Positions 3,600-38,752 of a stretch of 46,095 nucleotides of DNA are shown here, piece after piece. A model generated the notes under the pieces. The model had not been told where the DNA came from and searched no databases. It saw nothing but the letters and a program-made list of their open reading frames with translations. Every line of letters begins with the position of its first letter. Positions within the stretch are counted from its first letter, which is position 1. A program made the position numbers and the translations under genes. This DNA is from a virus. Taxonomy: Duplodnaviria; Heunggongvirae; Uroviricota; Caudoviricetes. The DNA is taken from the IMG/VR virus record IMGVR_UViG_2565956709_000007. One strand, given 5' to 3'.

Positions 3600-6500
3600 T
3601 ATGCAAGCCTCACAATATAGTTAAATGCGATGTTTTTGACGGTGTTTTCCGCGTTACCAGCAGCGTTAACGGTGATGGTGTGTCCATGTGAACCAATCGC
3701 AACCGAGTGCGTATGCGCACCAATACCGACAGTATGTGCATGTGCACCTGCAGATGCTGCTGTGCCGGACAGCGAGTGGGTATGAGCACCATCTGATGAT
3801 GTCTTCCCTGCATTACGAGTCTGGCCACTACCGCTTGTTGTGCTCATAATCCCCGCGCTTGGATTTGAAATCGCGGTATAACCATTAGGGAAAATGCTCG
3901 TGTTCGTGCCACCAAATGCACCGGAACTCTTGTGTTGGTGCGCACCGGCACTATTTGCGGTCCCGCTAATACTATGGGTATGCGCCCCGGTGTTATTCGT
4001 GGATTTAGTGCCGTAATCAAACGACGATGTGGTTTTCGTCCCCAAATCCGTACTGGATGCGCTGGCGCTGTGGGTATGCGATTTAATGCCATCCTGTTCC
4101 TGAGACAATACGGCACGACCACTGGCGGGCTTGCCCTTAATCGTCCAGCCACGCATATCAGGGATCACGCCTGACGGATAAGCCGCTGCAAGTTTCGGGT
4201 AAGCAGATTTGTCAAAAGTCTGCCCCTGCATCAGGGCATAACCAGACGGAACGGTATCTGATGGCCACGGGATTGGTGCGCCAACTGGGTAGCTTTCTGG
4301 TGGAAGATTTTTCGAGGTATAAACTTCTGCCCAGCCTTCCTCAAAACCATAGCCATCTCTTGAGGAACGGTAGAACAGACCTCCATTTCTGTAATGCGCC
4401 TTCATCTGCAGGGTCCGGCAACTTCCGACTCCGGTATAGAAGTTAACCAGAATATAGGTGTCGCCAGAGCGGGTGACATTGTAAGCGCCTGATTCGGCAT
4501 TCCAGGGAACGCCACCATCCGCATCGGCATATGTATCCGTTGCCCTTCTGGCAAAAGCAGCCACATGCGCGGCGGTTAAAGTGATATCAGTAGAACCATC
4601 AAATGGAACACCGGATATTTTTCTTGCAGTCTGAAGTTTTGTAGCAGTTGCAGCATTACCAGTGGTGTTCTGATTACCCGTAGTGTTTACACCTGGAAGG
4701 TTAATATTTGCAGAACCGTCGAAAACAACTCCACCGATAGATCTTGCCGTCTGCAATTTCGTGGCTGTACTTGCATTACCATTCAATGAACCAGTTAATC
4801 CACCTGTAACAGACAACGGACCTGAAACTGTTCCTCCGGTTGTTGGCAGTGCTCCAATATCTGATGGTGTAGGTTTCTGATGTGAGCTATACATCGTATA
4901 AACAACACCATAGGTAACGCTGGAAGGCTTACTCGCTGAATATGTTGGCGAGGTATAAACAGAAACTGACGCATTTGCAGTACAATCCCAATGGATATTT
5001 ACACTCGTCGCATAATTGCCAATCTCAACGTAAATATCATATGTATCGCCGGATGTGTTGATCCAGGCGAAATTCGTTAATCCGACGGCTGTACGCTTCC
5101 ACAAAGCCCCGGTAATTCCTTTGGGGTTTCCATTGCCTGCTCGTAGAACCAGTTCTGAAATGCCTGCCTGATGTGGGGAACCGACGTTGTAACCAGCGCC
5201 ACCAATCAATGCGATGTAAACGATGGAACTCGCTTGTGGCATGGTAACCGTAGCCAGTTTGAACCACCCAGCCCCGCCAGAGAAAGACATCGTTACTGAA
5301 TTTAAAGTACCAATATCTTTCGGCGTTAATGTTATATCCGCAGTCAATGCTTTTCCGTTAACTTTTCGGTTAGATGGCACCCTGCTATTCGCATTGTCAT
5401 TGGCTGCTTTAACTGCTTTTGGCGTTGCGGCCAGCGATTCACTGGTGCTATCAACAGCACTGCTAAGTTTCACAACACCTTTAGTTGTAAGGCTTGCGTC
5501 TTCCATCGCAACTGCACCGGCAATCTCTTCAGCACGATCAGCAGCAGCTTCCGCACGGGTCGCAGCGGATTCAGCAGCAGTTTTGCTCTGAGATGCTGCC
5601 GTCGCACTGCCTGCCGCCTCTGTTGCCTTCGTGGATGCCGTCGTGGCGCTGCTCTTCGCTGCTGACGCCTGTCTGGTCGCCTCATCTTTTGAAGCAGACG
5701 CAGATGATGCCGATGACGCCGCCGAACTGGCGGACGATGCGGCAGCCGTTTTTGAGGATTCTGCACTGGTTTCCGACGCTTTCGCGTTCGTTTCGGATGT
5801 CTTCGCTGCGGAAGCAGACCTCGCTGCTGCGCTGGCCTGTTCAGTGGCTTCGCCAGCCTTCGTTGTGGCTGTTGAAGCAGACGATGCGGCGCTTTCTGCC
5901 GATTTTCCGGCGGCGGTGGCACTGGCTGAGGCCTGCCCGGCACTTGTTGACGCTGCACTGGCAGACGACGCAGCCGCTGTTTTTGAGCCTGCCGCAGCTG
6001 AGGCACTCTGTTCCGCTGCCGTTTCAGAAGACCTGGCGTTTGTCTCAGACGTTTTTGCCGCCTTCGCAGAATTTGCTGCCGCCGTTGCCGAGGAAGCTGC
6101 GCTGCTGGCGCTCGAGGCTGCGCTCGTTTCTGATGATTTCGCTGCCTCTTTTGAGGCCGCCGCATCCCGGGCTGAGGTGGCAGCTTCTGACGCCTTCGTG
6201 GTCGCGGCGGATGCAGAAGTGGCTGCTGATTGTTGTGACGCTGCCGCATTCGTTTCTGACGTTTTCGCCGCAGCGGCACTGGTAGCTGCCGCGCTTTTTG
6301 AGGACTCTGCAGCAGCAGCACTTTTCGATGCTTCACTGGCCTTTGTTGATGCCGTTCCTGCGCTGGAAGATGCTGACTGAGCCGACGACGCGGCCTGTCC
6401 GGCTGACGTGCTGGCTGCGCGTGCTGAGCCTGCAGCATCAGTCGCATGGGTTGCCGCCTCACGGGCTGATGTGCCGGCATCGCTGGCTGACTTCTTCGCG

Positions 6501-35227: not shown

Positions 35228-35383
35228 TTACTCCTCAGGTTCGTAGACTGTGAAGACAGCGACCTCCATCTGGCCGGTTCGGATTCGTACCTCGCAGAGG
35301 TCTTTCCTCGTTACCAGTGCCGTCACTATGACGGTTAAACAGATGACGATCAGGGCGATTAACATCGCCTTTTGCTGCTTCAT
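35228..35383 (-). CDS. hok: Hok/Gef-family type I toxin (HokD/RelF-like)
   Basis: 51-aa product MKQQKAMLIALIVICLTVIVTALVTRKDLCEVRIRTGQMEVAVFTVYEPEE; AAGGAG upstream; an in-frame ATG 19 codons further upstream (35440). Confidence 0.8.
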   Translation of the reverse strand: MKQQKAMLIALIVICLTVIVTALVTRKDLCEVRIRTGQMEVAVFTVYEPEE

Positions 35384-35641
35384 AGCCTGCTTCTCCTTGC
35401 CTTTCGGCACGTAAGAGGCTAACCTAGATTTGCCGTTCATAGATTGAGCCTCAGATTAATGTTAAGCGTCTTGCAGGACGCGTAATGTTAACTGGGGCTT
35501 TTCTCTATCTGCCTTTGGTGTTCATGCCTGAGGCAGATAGCCTCAAGCACCCGCAGTCATTCTACTTAACTAAGATTTCCCCGCAAACCGTTTTTGTCCA
35601 GCACAATAAATATCCAACTAAACCAATGGAGTTCGCTGTAT

Positions 35642-35821
35642 TTACCGCCAGTATTCAATGCACATGACCGCCATGAACACCCCTAAAAAAAGGGCATTTA
35701 TATATCCAAATATTAATATCAAAACATCAACTTTTTCCATATACCTTGCTGTGAAGATGATGGGCATACATGATACGAACAACCAGAACGCAACAAACAA
35801 AAACTGCAATGCGTTTTTCAT
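35642..35821 (-). CDS. Hypothetical 59-aa two-TM membrane protein
   Basis: ATG 35821 with AGGAGG 4 nt upstream; hydrophobic product MKNALQFLFVAFWLFVSCMPIIF... Confidence 0.4.
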   Translation of the reverse strand: MKNALQFLFVAFWLFVSCMPIIFTARYMEKVDVLILIFGYINALFLGVFMAVMCIEYWR

Positions 35822-36252
35822 TATTCCTCCTACAATCAATGTGCAATTACATTTAAACACACCTCAATTTGGCCGGACATATAAATATCTAAACTAGAAA
35901 AAATCACTTACATAGCGTTACAAACTCTTTAGTCTAAAGGTTCATCGTAAAACACTCCCCATACTTATCAGTCCGTTCCGCGCCAGGTAGCTTATTGCCT
36001 TATCTGGCAACCTATAATCAGGTTTCCGCTTTTTCAGTTGGCTGGTCGTTTAACCGACATAGTTAACCCATTAATCTAGTTGCCGGATGTTGGTGGATTT
36101 TCGCGTTTTAGTTGTTCATAAAAGTGCACAGCTTTAACCAGTTCTTCTGATGTAACCAGGGCTGGTGAGGCAGTGAATAAGGCCTGAATTTGATAGTTCG
36201 GCCTGTCGTTACAATCCTCTTTTTTCGGTACATATTTCCAGTCAACAGACCA

Positions 36253-36363
36253 CTACTTCTCCTGAAAGTCCGTAACGCCTTTTTTCACGTAGCGATATCG
36301 CCATGCCACTGGTTTTGCTTGCTCCGCCGTTTCATACCCTTCCTGATAATTAATCTCGCTCAT
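36253..36363 (-). CDS. Hypothetical 36-aa protein (not in ORF track)
   Basis: ATG overlaps the upstream gene stop (ATGA); MSEINYQEGYETAEQAKPVAWRYRYVKKGVTDFQEK. Confidence 0.25.
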   Translation of the reverse strand: MSEINYQEGYETAEQAKPVAWRYRYVKKGVTDFQEK

Positions 36364-36536
36364 TCATCGCCCCACTCATCACAATATGCTTCGACCGGAT
36401 TTTTTCCTGCTTCATAATCATCACGCCATGCTTCAGCATCAGCAGCACTGCCACCACGTAACTCTGCATAGTCCATTAACAGTTCATGCCATTTTTCAAA
36501 ACTGACGTTGTATTTAGTTGAACCAAAATCAGCCAT
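36360..36536 (-). CDS. Hypothetical 58-aa acidic protein (not in ORF track)
   Basis: ATG overlaps the 3' end of the upstream gene; MADFGSTKYNVSFEKWHELLMDYAELRGGSAADAEAWRDDYEAGKNPVEAYCDEWGDE. Confidence 0.3.
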   Translation of the reverse strand: MADFGSTKYNVSFEKWHELLMDYAELRGGSAADAEAWRDDYEAGKNPVEAYCDEWGDE

Positions 36537-36711
36537 TTTGCTCTTCCTCTTCGTCTTTTATTTCGTGATATGAGTAATTGCAGTAGTTAAAGAAAATATC
36601 TTTTGCTTCGTCATGTATTTCATCAGGCGTCGCATCAGCATCCACTTCGAATTCATCCTCGAAATCTCCACCAGCCATTCCCGTTTCAATAATTATTTTG
36701 AACTTTCGCAT
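36529..36711 (-). CDS. Hypothetical 60-aa highly acidic protein
   Basis: Track ORF MRKFKIIIETGMAGGDFEDEFEVDADATPDEIHDEAKDIFFNYCNYSYHEIKDEEEEQNG. Confidence 0.3.
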   Translation of the reverse strand: MRKFKIIIETGMAGGDFEDEFEVDADATPDEIHDEAKDIFFNYCNYSYHEIKDEEEEQNG

Positions 36712-36804
36712 TTCACTACCGCCCTTTCGGGTGGCCTCCTGCTGTTCTGAGGGTGCAGAAATCCCTCCGGTTAAGGATTAAATTTTTAACAGTGCTAAAT
36801 TTAA

Positions 36805-37161
36805 TTATTCAGTTTTGGATTTTGTCACCCTGCGTATCCACGCTTTCCCGTTACGCTCAATCTGAATTAGCTTTTCTATATTTTTTCGCCTTTCCCGTTC
36901 CTCCTGGCGCAAGAGCCTTACATCATCTGCCAGTCTGGTTTCTCTTTTCGCCACAGAGAGCATCCAGTCAAATGGCTCCACAACTGCACCGCAGATTTTA
37001 CAGCGGACCTGACGCTCTTTTTCGTCAACCCGGACAGAAGCGTGATGGCAATATGGTCTTTCCGATGGCTCATAAAGAAAATTAACCTGATTACGAGGGT
37101 CATCCTCTTTTATCGGAAATAAAACGATATTGCTTAACTAATCCTCTGGTTTTATTTCCAT
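36805..37161 (-). pseudogene. Zinc-ribbon protein gene interrupted by an in-frame TAG after codon 7 (amber pseudogene, or downstream/non-canonical start)
   Basis: AGGAG-ATG at 37161, MEIKPED, TAG, then 110 open codons encoding ...PYCHHASVRVDEKERQVRCKICGAVVEPFDWMLSVAKRETRLADDVRLLRQEERERRKNIEKLIQ... Confidence 0.3.
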
Positions 37162-37218
37162 GCTCCTCTCCTTTGATGCGAATGCCAGCGGCAATTGAAG
37201 CCTGATAGCTAATTTCAC

Positions 37219-37641
37219 TCACAGTACCGCCTCCTGAAAATTACCCTGATAGAAAGCCAGTACACGCTGCATAGCTTCGCTCTTCCGGCACTCGCGACAG
37301 ATTATATTCAGGCGCCTGTCGTAGCGGCGTATTTCTCCGTCTGGTAATGACCAGATTAGGTCCGGATCAACCGCAGATGGTTTCTTCGGCTTTGCCCTTG
37401 AGAGCTTTTTACGGGCATTTTGCCAGTCCTTACGCGCCTGTTCAGACGGGAATAACCCGTAACCAGAGTTGTATACATCGCCACTGGCAACCAGCTCTCT
37501 GGCCAGAACGCTCATCAGATATCTTGTTGCCCCAGTTTTAGTTTCCAGTTGTCGTAACGTCTCGCGCCCACTTTGGCGTACGAGTTCAACAACCTGCCCT
37601 TTAATTTTTTCCCGCTCTTCTTGTGTAAAAACTTTTGCCAC
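37219..37641 (-). CDS. Hypothetical protein with HTH-like N-terminus and CxxC motif, downstream of the replication initiator
   Basis: 140-aa ORF; no similarity to DnaC/P-type helicase loaders recognised. Confidence 0.4.
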   Translation of the reverse strand: MAKVFTQEEREKIKGQVVELVRQSGRETLRQLETKTGATRYLMSVLARELVASGDVYNSGYGLFPSEQARKDWQNARKKLSRAKPKKPSAVDPDLIWSLPDGEIRRYDRRLNIICRECRKSEAMQRVLAFYQGNFQEAVL

Positions 37642-37681
37642 AAGCCCTCCTGAAAATTACCTCATGACCAGAAATTAACAC

Positions 37682-38752
37682 TTACCCCCTGAAGCCCGGC
37701 GGAATTTCGTTATCCGGTTCAGAAATATGATTCACACAACGCTGGTTGTTCGTGCCGCTTACCGGGAGCAACCAGGGGTTCTCAAAATTCCGGTCCGGTC
37801 CAAAAAACGTCGTCGCTCGCTGAACAAATTCCGTTCCCGTTTTCCCGGTAGCCGCCAAGTATCTTGCGTAACGCCTCACGCCATCCAGCATGGCCTCTGG
37901 TGGCACCCCCTCGCGTAATCTGGCCTTCCAGGCACTGAAAGCGGATTTCTTCGGGTTTGCTCCGGCACGCAACGGGTACTCCCGCCAGACCTGTTCGAAC
38001 ACATCCGGATAATCCACTCGTCCCACAGACTGCCCGGTGTTTTCCGGGACTACCCGATCGGCTTCCCGCTGAATGGCGGAATCGGCTTCGGGCTGCTGCA
38101 GTTGGTGTGATTGCTCCGGCCTTGCGGTCATCACCTGCTGCACAGCGCCCGAATCGGCTTTCAGCGCATACGCTGAATCGGCTTCCGGTGTCGTGCCTGC
38201 TGGCTGACCAAGATTGACGGTCTGAACATCCCCTGCCTGGTTCGTGGCGTTTTTTACGCCATGGACCATAGTGTTTTGATCTTCTTGATCTGTATCTTTA
38301 TCTGTATCTTTATCTGTCGTGACTCGTCGTGACATATGCGTGACATTTCGTGACGCGCCGTGACAATCGCCATTTTGTTCCCGCTTTCTTTCCCTCTCTC
38401 GCTGCGCCCTCTTGCGCTCTGCAGGAGATTTTGCGGTTTGCGAAATATTGCCGTTGTCCTCTTTAAGCACCTGGCGTTTTTCCCATCCAGTGATTAAATC
38501 ACCATCAAGTACCCGCCCCTGCATCGTCTGCAAAATTGAATCAATTACCTCTTCTGTCACGTCGAGCGCACTTGCCAAATCTTCTGTCGTGACCTCAATG
38601 TGACCTCGCGTGACATTTCGTGACGCGCTCACCAGGAGGTGGATATACACTGCCATCACTGTTGCAATTGGCTGCCCTGACACCCTGGCAATTGTTCGCC
38701 ACTTAGGGTCATTTGGCATGTCATGCCATAATCTGAGCCAGGCGTTAGCCAT
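37682..38752 (-). CDS. Replication initiator (O-like) containing the origin iterons
   Basis: ATG 38752 with GAGGTG upstream; two clusters of 10-11-bp spaced CGTGAC repeats inside the coding sequence. Confidence 0.6.
   Translation of the reverse strand: MANAWLRLWHDMPNDPKWRTIARVSGQPIATVMAVYIHLLVSASRNVTRGHIEVTTEDLASALDVTEEVIDSILQTMQGRVLDGDLITGWEKRQVLKEDNGNISQTAKSPAERKRAQRERERKREQNGDCHGASRNVTHMSRRVTTDKDTDKDTDQEDQNTMVHGVKNATNQAGDVQTVNLGQPAGTTPEADSAYALKADSGAVQQVMTARPEQSHQLQQPEADSAIQREADRVVPENTGQSVGRVDYPDVFEQVWREYPLRAGANPKKSAFSAWKARLREGVPPEAMLDGVRRYARYLAATGKTGTEFVQRATTFFGPDRNFENPWLLPVSGTNNQRCVNHISEPDNEIPPGFRG
38317..38364. repeat. Iteron cluster 1 (five CGTGAC repeats at 10-11 bp spacing), preceded by a tandem atctgtatcttt repeat
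   Basis: tgtcgtgactcgtcgtgacatatgcgtgacatttcgtgacgcgccgtgacaa read directly. Confidence 0.6.
38588..38624. repeat. Iteron cluster 2 (four (C)GTGAC repeats; shares the 20-mer cgtgacatttcgtgacgcgc with cluster 1)
   Basis: cgtgacctcaatgtgacctcgcgtgacatttcgtgacgcgc read directly; an inverted copy gtcacg sits about 30 bp upstream. Confidence 0.55.

Follow-up and report, generated by a model that had tools for sequence, protein, structure and literature searches.

Evidence for a conserved two-gene cassette and a decayed third gene in the nin-equivalent region of an E. coli lambdoid prophage

How many genes are encoded in a run of very small, overlapping reading frames in the early region of a lambdoid prophage, and what might their products do? 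The window (the whole 46,095-nucleotide stretch of DNA analysed here, IMG/VR record IMGVR_UViG_2565956709_000007) raises this question at positions 36253–36711. A preliminary description had listed three translationally coupled minus-strand ORFs there and a possible fourth, and had proposed a candidate anti-defence or host-takeover cluster. The frames of 60, 58 and 36 aa lie exactly where that description placed them and overlap as it said, through ATGGCTGA between the first two and ATGA between the second and third. The first two are indeed very acidic: ORF1 has a pI of 4.06 and a net charge of −14 (D+E 19 vs K+R 5), and ORF2 has a pI of 4.17 and a net charge of −10 (D+E 15 vs K+R 5). The count of genes, as set out below, comes to two rather than three or four. 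The features discussed are:

36712–36740, minus strand: cassette leader, with AGGAGG at 36740–36735 and a hairpin at 36734–36719, then TAGTGAA and the ATG
36529–36711, minus strand: ORF1, 60 aa, DUF7167 / phrog_1997, PGAP WP_001224679.1
36360–36536, minus strand: ORF2, 58 aa, phrog_519, PGAP WP_000753064.1, no Pfam family
36253–36363, minus strand: ORF3, 36 codons, 5′ stump of a decayed phrog_660-family gene, ending in TAG at 36255–36253
35942–36363, minus strand: the whole phrog_660-family pseudogene, PGAP ‘frameshifted; internal stop’
36108–36245, minus strand: ORF4, 41 aa from ATG 36233 or 45 aa from TTG 36245, pI 11.1

The ORF1/ORF2 region is situated between replication genes (O-like, DUF977) on one side and hokD/DUF968/rusA/Q on the other. 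This flanking makes it the equivalent of the nin region, within the early rightward operon of a Qin/Rac-like lambdoid E. coli prophage, in agreement with the nin-like location first proposed. Many E. coli chromosomes are 100% identical over a 1.4-kb stretch holding the cassette, and 3011 of 5426 complete genomes match at least part of that stretch. An annotated identical copy is present in NZ_CP048359 (L004), where the PGAP gene order reads exonuclease, ydfD, dicB, ydfA, a cI-like HTH gene, a cro-like HTH gene, YdaT, an O-like protein, DUF977, two short hypothetical proteins, a DUF7167 family protein (ORF1), a hypothetical protein (ORF2), a pseudogene, hokD, DUF968, RusA and antiterminator Q. 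The immediate neighbours are a zinc-ribbon phrog_1621 gene upstream, which carries a TAG in the window, and the phrog_660 pseudogene and hok/sok downstream; sok/hok was also the one Rfam match in the region. A consensus scan of the minus strand from 35400 to 37700 detected no promoter-like or terminator-like site, so the ORFs most simply belong to a read-through early operon rather than to an autonomous moron. Small ORFs are abundant by chance in such DNA (58 ORFs of at least 25 aa in 4 kb), and it is therefore conservation, not mere presence, that sets ORF1 and ORF2 apart.

ORF1 belongs to an existing family. It scores 52.6 bits against Pfam PF23768 (DUF7167; gathering cut-off 24.4), with residues 2–53 aligning end to end to profile positions 1–60 of 60, and it matches phrog_1997 at E 1.3e-29. 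It is a plain member of this family, differing from it in no respect, and PGAP names it accordingly (‘DUF7167 family protein’, WP_001224679.1). Homologues in Klebsiella phages, 48–66% identical, match the same DUF7167 model; against these, dN is 0.22 and 0.41 and synonymous sites are saturated. Among close E. coli alleles, ORF1 polymorphism amounts to 5 synonymous and 2 non-synonymous differences. Our literature search found no paper mentioning DUF7167 or PF23768.

ORF2 is a member of phrog_519 (E 5.1e-22, 79.8 bits), covering positions 76–137 of the 143-position profile only; read-through or fusion seems to have produced the longer members of phrog_519. With the ORF2 alignment as the query, an exhaustive HMMER search gave 78 clusters at 50% identity, nearly all of them stand-alone proteins of 50–65 aa, with the family core F-E-E-W-x-x-x-L-…-A-…-G-x-S-x-A-D-x-x-A-W-R-x-D-Y-D-x-G-x-T-P-x-x-A-W-x-D-E-W. 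None of 27 diverse family members matches a Pfam family. A GenBank label on the Morganella phage homologue assigns it to ‘DUF5419’; this assignment was not reproduced with current Pfam, and we found no paper using DUF5419. Homologues in Vi01-like phages are 50–57% identical to ORF2.

Divergence between relatives indicates that both frames encode proteins under constraint. Compared with its Enterobacter relative, ORF2 has 27.5 synonymous differences over 33.5 sites (saturated) and 17.5 non-synonymous differences over 140.5 sites, and its dN/dS is 0.107 against the P2-like, 0.103 against the Morganella phage and 0.219 against the Vi01 homologue. For the distant homologues of ORF1 and ORF2 taken together, synonymous sites are saturated whereas dN is only 0.14–0.5, and we therefore take ORF1 and ORF2, on codon-level evidence, to be bona fide protein-coding genes. 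The close E. coli alleles of ORF2 have 16 non-synonymous and 4 synonymous variable sites, an approximately neutral ratio, with the variation concentrated at residues 4–15, 22 and 46. It may be that constraint on ORF2 has recently been weak, or has acted on the core alone; the pattern, from a small sample, fits either relaxation in the poorly conserved N-terminal third or diversifying selection.

The two genes are also conserved as a pair. In 81 of 84 related loci, drawn from phage records and IMG/VR, ORF1 and ORF2 are both full-length and ungapped and share the identical ATGGCTGA overlap. The three exceptions are a cut at a contig end, a 1-nt deletion in ORF2 and an in-frame 6-nt deletion. The set comprises 15 DNA haplotypes, with both frames open in every one. 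The exact ORF1 and ORF2 proteins each occur on at least 1000 contigs, under the names ‘hypothetical’, ‘prophage protein’ or ‘DUF7167’. Both are already annotated in RefSeq and belong to catalogued families of hypothetical proteins. A scan of genome contigs with ORF2 alone as the query gave no match.

The ATG of ORF2 lies 8 nt inside the end of ORF1 (AAT GGC TGA / ATG GCT GA), and a Shine-Dalgarno-like GAGG is found 9 nt 5′ of this ATG, inside the EEEE codons of ORF1. The conserved overlap combined with this GAGG is what is expected of a coupled pair, and ORF1–ORF2 is accordingly predicted to be translationally coupled. The preliminary description had extended the coupling to three ORFs; the prediction applies to ORF1 and ORF2 as a conserved pair, but ORF3 is a stump, cut off by a TAG, of a 171-aa gene.

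Upstream of ORF1, the leader hairpin CCACCC-GAAA-GGGCGG (36734–36719) has CCGCCC as its first arm in most alleles, and the leader possibly forms a split Shine-Dalgarno arrangement. A comparison of fetched loci showed that the 30 nt before the ORF1 ATG are conserved in three different upstream contexts, which makes the cassette boundary sharp. Taken as a whole, the 121-nt leader has no significant predicted fold (z −1.37). Among the alignments, A3 contains 4 loci only and A5 is very diverse.

ORF3 begins at an ATG that overlaps the ORF2 stop as ATGA, and its predicted product is neutral (pI 6.1). The TAG that ends it occupies codon 37, where intact alleles have CAG or CCG. Past this TAG the same frame continues as WSVDWKYVPKKEDCNDRPNYQIQALF… and shares 76% identity (E 5e-31) with residues 38–92 of the intact protein. 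Since the downstream frame is homologous to the intact 171-aa protein, ORF3 is the stump of a pseudogene, the 5′ end of a decayed phrog_660-family gene, rather than as a 36-aa gene. Besides the TAG at codon 37, the window's copy of this gene has, relative to intact alleles, lost 90 nt in frame and another 4 nt and gained a second TAG, and its conserved end, GTTTTACGATGA, falls at 35942, exactly at the PGAP pseudogene boundary. The identical copy in L004 (6938–7359) is likewise annotated ‘frameshifted; internal stop’. ORF3 itself matches phrog_660 at E 3e-06 over positions 34–68, and the intact 171-aa allele does so at 4e-75; against a full-length frame of ~171 aa, ORF3 did not qualify as a functional member of the family.

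A survey of the 84 loci revealed that the third gene, at the ATGA overlap, varies widely. Its commonest intact form is 171 aa; other lengths are 129, 119 and 104 aa, degraded forms are 36, 40, 70, 76 and 85 aa, and in some loci the gene is replaced by an Ead/Ea22-like gene of 211 or 239 aa. More than half of the loci sampled have it in a degraded form, with ORF1 and ORF2 intact. One source of variation is an A-run, which is A6 in the window and A7 or A8 in other alleles; the A7 allele gives the 40-aa form and the A8 alleles give the 85-aa ‘hypothetical proteins’ of phage 640R1. The first ~18 residues of ORF3, MSEINYQEGYETAEQA, resemble those of λ Ea22, VSEINSQALREAAEQA. The true Ead/Ea22 (PF13935) proteins are, by contrast, the replaced 211- or 239-aa alleles only, and ORF3 is truncated at codon 37: in the Pfam search the replacement 211-aa allele alone matched Ead_Ea22 (3.5e-39), and the 119-aa and 171-aa alleles and ORF3 matched no Pfam family, including Ead_Ea22. 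The conservation and synteny that the preliminary description had named as a check on its three ORFs therefore hold for ORF1 and ORF2 (the 81 loci above), but fail at the third position, which is variable in length.

The fourth, basic 41-aa ORF does not stand up as a gene. ORF4 has no Pfam, PHROG or NCBIfam match, and its frame differs from the homologous frame of the pseudogene. It is joined to the ORF3 N-terminus as a C-terminal extension in the A8-run frameshift alleles only. By frame comparison, ORF4 is an out-of-frame by-product inside the pseudogene. The corrected annotation of the locus has two genes, and the short third and fourth ORFs are not worth pursuing as small proteins. This anatomy, a two-gene cassette of ORF1 and ORF2 followed by a dead third gene, is very likely correct.

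Among lambdoid phages of E. coli the cassette travels in one piece, being found in the nin region of the window and of phages 640R1 and 689R5, and in the early-left region of Stx phage ArgO145, beside Ead/Ea22-like genes. The gene 3′ of the cassette always starts MSEI(N/D)YQ, an Ea22-type N-terminus, and this motif has the look of a junction left by recombination between mosaic lambdoid genomes. Outside this cassette the two families part company. ORF2 relatives follow an Ead_Ea22 gene in the early-left region of Enterobacter prophages, where DUF7167 is absent; they come directly after the replication gene gpA in P2-like phages and after the major capsid gene in virulent Vi01-like Ackermannviridae, and they lie within runs of anonymous small ORFs on metagenomic phage contigs. 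They are present in 196 phage records, mostly ~157-kb Salmonella, Klebsiella and Escherichia phages. DUF7167 is rarer (17 phage records), occurring in E. coli phages, Klebsiella lambdoid phages and a virulent Guernseyvirinae phage; in the Klebsiella phages it precedes unrelated genes (phrog_926 then DUF551, or an exonuclease). Both families were found in phages only. Since each occurs elsewhere without the other, they do not form an obligate pair outside the E. coli cassette, and we infer that they are independent modules joined in it.

AlphaFold2 models were examined for both proteins. The ORF1 model (pLDDT 78, core >90) has strands at residues 2–9 and 16–23 and a helix at 29–46, the predicted fold being a beta-hairpin packed against a long helix, plus an acidic tail (KDEEEEQNG) that is disordered. 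The ORF2 model (pLDDT 78) has helices at residues 13–26, 34–42 and 47–55, a predicted three-helix bundle. Sequence and profile searches of the PDB with ORF1 and ORF2 gave no match, and fold comparison with the PDB gave none either (best Foldseek E for ORF2, 7.5). The BFVD search returned only uncharacterised phage proteins of ~57 aa (phAPEC8, Lactococcus phage 949 and Stenotrophomonas YB07), at TM 0.6–0.7 and E >0.05. No catalytic, membrane or DNA-binding motif was detected in either protein. Acidity and small size are, taken alone, weak predictors.

The small genes of the λ exo-xis and nin regions (orf60a/DUF1317, orf61, orf63/DUF1382, ea8.5, ea22 and ninD/E/F/H) are the obvious point of comparison. 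They are likewise early, tightly packed ORFs of 55–95 aa, non-essential, often overlapping, and placed in mosaic accessory regions of lambdoid genomes, and ArgO145 carries the ORF1–ORF2 cassette in the equivalent early-left region. ORF1 and ORF2 differ from most of these proteins in being far more acidic, and their families reach virulent phages. Against 12 λ proteins, including orf60a, orf61, orf63, Ea8.5, Ea22 and NinB/D/E/F/H, phmmer --max and the A5 profile gave scores of at most 2 bits, and a Pfam scan found none of the λ exo-xis/nin families (DUF1317, DUF1382, NinE and others). A relationship of ORF1 to λ orf60a, which is also 60 aa, was considered and rejected since no homology was found.

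Inhibitors of host or defence proteins come, as a rule, from small acidic early genes in accessory regions. Acidic phage inhibitors and DNA mimics include T7 Ocr, T7 Gp5.9, λ Gam, PBS2 Ugi, φ29 p56 and many Acrs. ORF1 and ORF2 share with these that they are small, single-domain, strongly negative, early and phage-restricted; the resemblance is one of physical properties only, and no sequence or structural similarity was found. The charge of ORF1 (net −14 over 60 aa) and ORF2 (net −10 over 58 aa) is in the range of a DNA mimic, and neither a structural likeness to a known mimic nor a DNA-like charge pattern was found. A search of PADLOC-DB with ORF1, ORF2, the intact third gene, DUF977 and the upstream gene produced no match at E 0.1 or better. 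The family identifiers and sequence words searched for ORF1 and ORF2 are absent from the supplements of an anti-defence catalogue of 268 proteins and of an E. coli phage accessory-gene screen, a limited negative. No aca-like HTH regulator adjoins ORF1 or ORF2, as an anti-CRISPR locus would have, and the Enterobacter, P2-like and metagenomic contexts show no conserved neighbour that would suggest a target. The locus was also considered as a toxin-antitoxin or defence module; this was rejected, there being no PADLOC match and no toxin family, and both proteins being acidic. The sole functional claim that we found in the literature for either family is a machine-learning prediction (PaCRISPR/AcRanker), with no validation, that phrog_519 members of Kuttervirus are anti-CRISPRs (10.1101/2022.06.14.493971). 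A further literature match to ‘phrog_519’ (PMC11370258) proved to be phrog_5197 instead.

The explanation that we favour, which we put at somewhat better than even, combines the two-gene cassette and dead third gene with a binding role for the proteins. Given the overlap and the lack of a promoter or terminator on the coding strand, ORF1 and ORF2 would be made from an early transcript that reads through, and ORF2 would be translated by the ribosomes that have just completed ORF1. Each product would be one ~60-residue domain (beta-beta-alpha with an acidic tail for ORF1, a three-helix bundle for ORF2) with a net charge of −10 to −14. A single, strongly acidic domain that is too small for an enzyme and shows no membrane or DNA-binding signature would probably work through binding to another protein. 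ORF1 and ORF2 may each bind, stoichiometrically, a host, defence or rival-phage protein, probably one that itself binds nucleic acid, and inhibit or redirect it early in infection; we offer this mechanism tentatively, at somewhat less than an even chance. That virulent phages also carry ORF2 relatives makes a host target more plausible than one in lysogeny control. It is rather doubtful that ORF1, ORF2 or both are founders of new families of stoichiometric inhibitors, DNA-mimic or Acr-like, directed against a host immunity or DNA-transaction protein.

Other readings of the locus account for part of these observations. That ORF1 and ORF2 tune phage development or host physiology (the lysis–lysogeny decision, induction timing or host replication) in the manner of the exo-xis genes is suggested by their early-left position, near Ead/Ea22-like genes and xis/int, in ArgO145 and Enterobacter prophages; exo-xis genes of comparable size in λ and Φ24B influence lysogenisation and induction (PMC3824215, PMC7093339). 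Yet neither protein is related in sequence to orf60a, orf61, orf63, Ea8.5, Ea22 or NinD–H, strictly virulent phages of the Vi01 type, which have no lysogeny decision to make, commonly carry ORF2 relatives, and DUF7167 occurs in a virulent Guernseyvirinae phage, so that we consider this reading unlikely. The original proposal, in which three or four coupled small proteins act jointly as an anti-defence or host-takeover module, draws on the real overlap geometry and acidity of ORF1 and ORF2, on their accessory early location and on the machine-learning Acr prediction for phrog_519. As a multi-gene module it is quite improbable: ORF3 is a piece of a 171-aa gene truncated by a nonsense codon, ORF4 lies out of frame, the third position ranges from 36 to 239 aa or is swapped for an Ead/Ea22 gene, ORF1 and ORF2 are found apart in other phages, and known anti-defence proteins and catalogue identifiers are unmatched.

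The state of the locus could also be taken to mean that ORF1 and ORF2 are functionless passengers of a decaying prophage that have not yet been mutated, since both flanking genes carry nonsense mutations in the window and the polymorphism of close ORF2 alleles (16 non-synonymous : 4 synonymous) looks neutral. Long-range dN/dS of 0.1–0.2 with saturated synonymous sites, the intact state of 81/84 loci, the 5 synonymous : 2 non-synonymous polymorphism of ORF1 and the persistence of the families in functional virulent and temperate phages make this, in our judgement, very unlikely. We give hardly any credence to a reading in which a neighbouring Ead/Ea22-type or phrog_660 protein has ORF2, and possibly ORF1, as its partner or cofactor. 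In its favour, 5/5 Enterobacter loci and the ArgO145-type cassette have an Ead_Ea22 gene flanking ORF2, and the Ea22-like MSEI(N/D)YQ invariably opens the downstream gene. Against it, ORF2 relatives in the P2-like, Vi01-like, Morganella and metagenomic settings have no Ead/Ea22 gene nearby, ORF1 and ORF2 are intact where the downstream partner is dead, and a junction left by mosaic-genome recombination accounts better for the motif that the N-termini share.

At present ORF1 and ORF2 are conserved hypothetical early phage genes of a routine kind. At the same time, few uncharacterised small prophage proteins of E. coli are more widespread, and the ORF2 family extends to Vi01-like phages of Salmonella and Klebsiella of the therapeutic type. 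Should either protein prove to inhibit a defence or host protein, it would add to the anti-defence repertoire and bear on host range in phage therapy. Were ORF1, ORF2 or both founders of new inhibitor families, those families would be common to temperate lambdoid and P2-like phages and virulent Ackermannviridae, and the clustering of non-synonymous changes at ORF2 residues 4–15, in the N-terminal third, and at residue 46 would reflect an arms race with the target.

A minor observation concerns P0123, a 127-aa protein considered as a natural ORF1–ORF2 fusion that might point to an interaction of the two, a reading that was rejected. Its N-terminus, at first sight DUF7167-like, is DUF1187/phrog_5753 (hhalign probability against DUF7167, 0.1), and P0123 is thus a fusion of DUF1187 with an ORF2 domain, present on a single contig only.

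The two intact genes of the cassette, the 60-aa acidic ORF1 and the 58-aa acidic ORF2, are flanked by a conserved leader on one side and by altered or decayed genes on both. The leader lies directly upstream of ORF1:

36712-36740, minus strand: ORF1 leader, consisting of AGGAGG, a GC hairpin and 7 nt, then the ATG

The strong AGGAGG in the window stands 23 nt upstream of the ORF1 ATG, and a GC hairpin, capped by a GAAA tetraloop and followed by 7 nt, fills the interval. In most alleles the hairpin reads CCGCCC-GAAA-GGGCGG; the window has CCACCC as the first arm. Comparison of upstream sequences showed that the 30-nt leader is conserved in three differing upstream contexts, and a fold test of the whole leader gave no significance. 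If formed, the hairpin would reduce the Shine-Dalgarno-to-ATG spacing to 7 nt, a 'split Shine-Dalgarno' arrangement for ORF1. T4 gene 38 has such an arrangement, and the ORF1 leader resembles it provided that the ORF1 hairpin forms.

Two features lie further upstream:

36805-37161, minus strand: phrog_1621-family gene, immediately upstream of ORF1, with a C-H-H…CxxC zinc-ribbon-like motif
37100-37222, minus strand: 40-aa ORF (MSEISYQASIAAGIRIKGEEHGNKTR…), an Ea22-type N-terminus joined directly to an Ea22-type C-terminus

Read from a well-placed ATG at 37161, the phrog_1621-family gene carries a GAG-to-TAG change at codon 8 (37140-37138, minus strand); the related phage 640R1 has GAG at this position. 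With a TAG in this upstream gene as well, the intact ORF1-ORF2 pair has amber mutations in the genes on either side. PGAP annotation rescues a 107-aa product via an ATC start. In sequence comparison, the C-terminus of the 40-aa ORF is comparable to those of λ Ea22 (…DAGIRIKGE) and a 239-aa allele (…AAGIRIKGEEHGNKTRR), and the ORF looks like the scar of an Ead/Ea22 gene with an internal deletion. The motif MSEIxYQ, which recurs at gene starts throughout the region, may be a recombination linker.

Downstream of ORF2, the decayed phrog_660-family gene (the third gene) contains a homopolymer, and a toxin-antitoxin locus follows:

36277-36282, minus strand: A-run in GTGAAAAAAGGC, in the third gene
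35228-35552, minus strand: hok/sok type I toxin-antitoxin locus, immediately downstream of the cassette and pseudogene
35228-35440, minus strand: hokD-containing ORF, part of the hok/sok locus

The homopolymer varies among prophages (loci including L001 and L084): A6 is in-frame, A7 yields a 40-aa and A8 an 85-aa product. The tract represents a slippage hotspot, or else it may be phase-variable. Phage records list the 85-aa products as hypothetical proteins despite their out-of-frame tail. The Rfam sok match spans 35378-35552 (111.7 bits).

ORF2 relatives also occur elsewhere. In P2-like phages (L090-L093, positions 4001-5037), one lies directly 3' of the replication gene gpA; next come a 62-aa phrog_8110 protein and a 227-aa protein with a Terminase_6N match. 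This site is the variable region of P2-like phages known as a carrier of anti-phage systems (PMC9122126). Another copy, 93% identical to E. coli ORF2, lies on a 3-kb scaffold (L104, JAIHTM010000290.1) of a 'Collinsella sp.' MAG, an actinobacterium bin; most likely this scaffold comes from an enterobacterial phage and was mis-binned.
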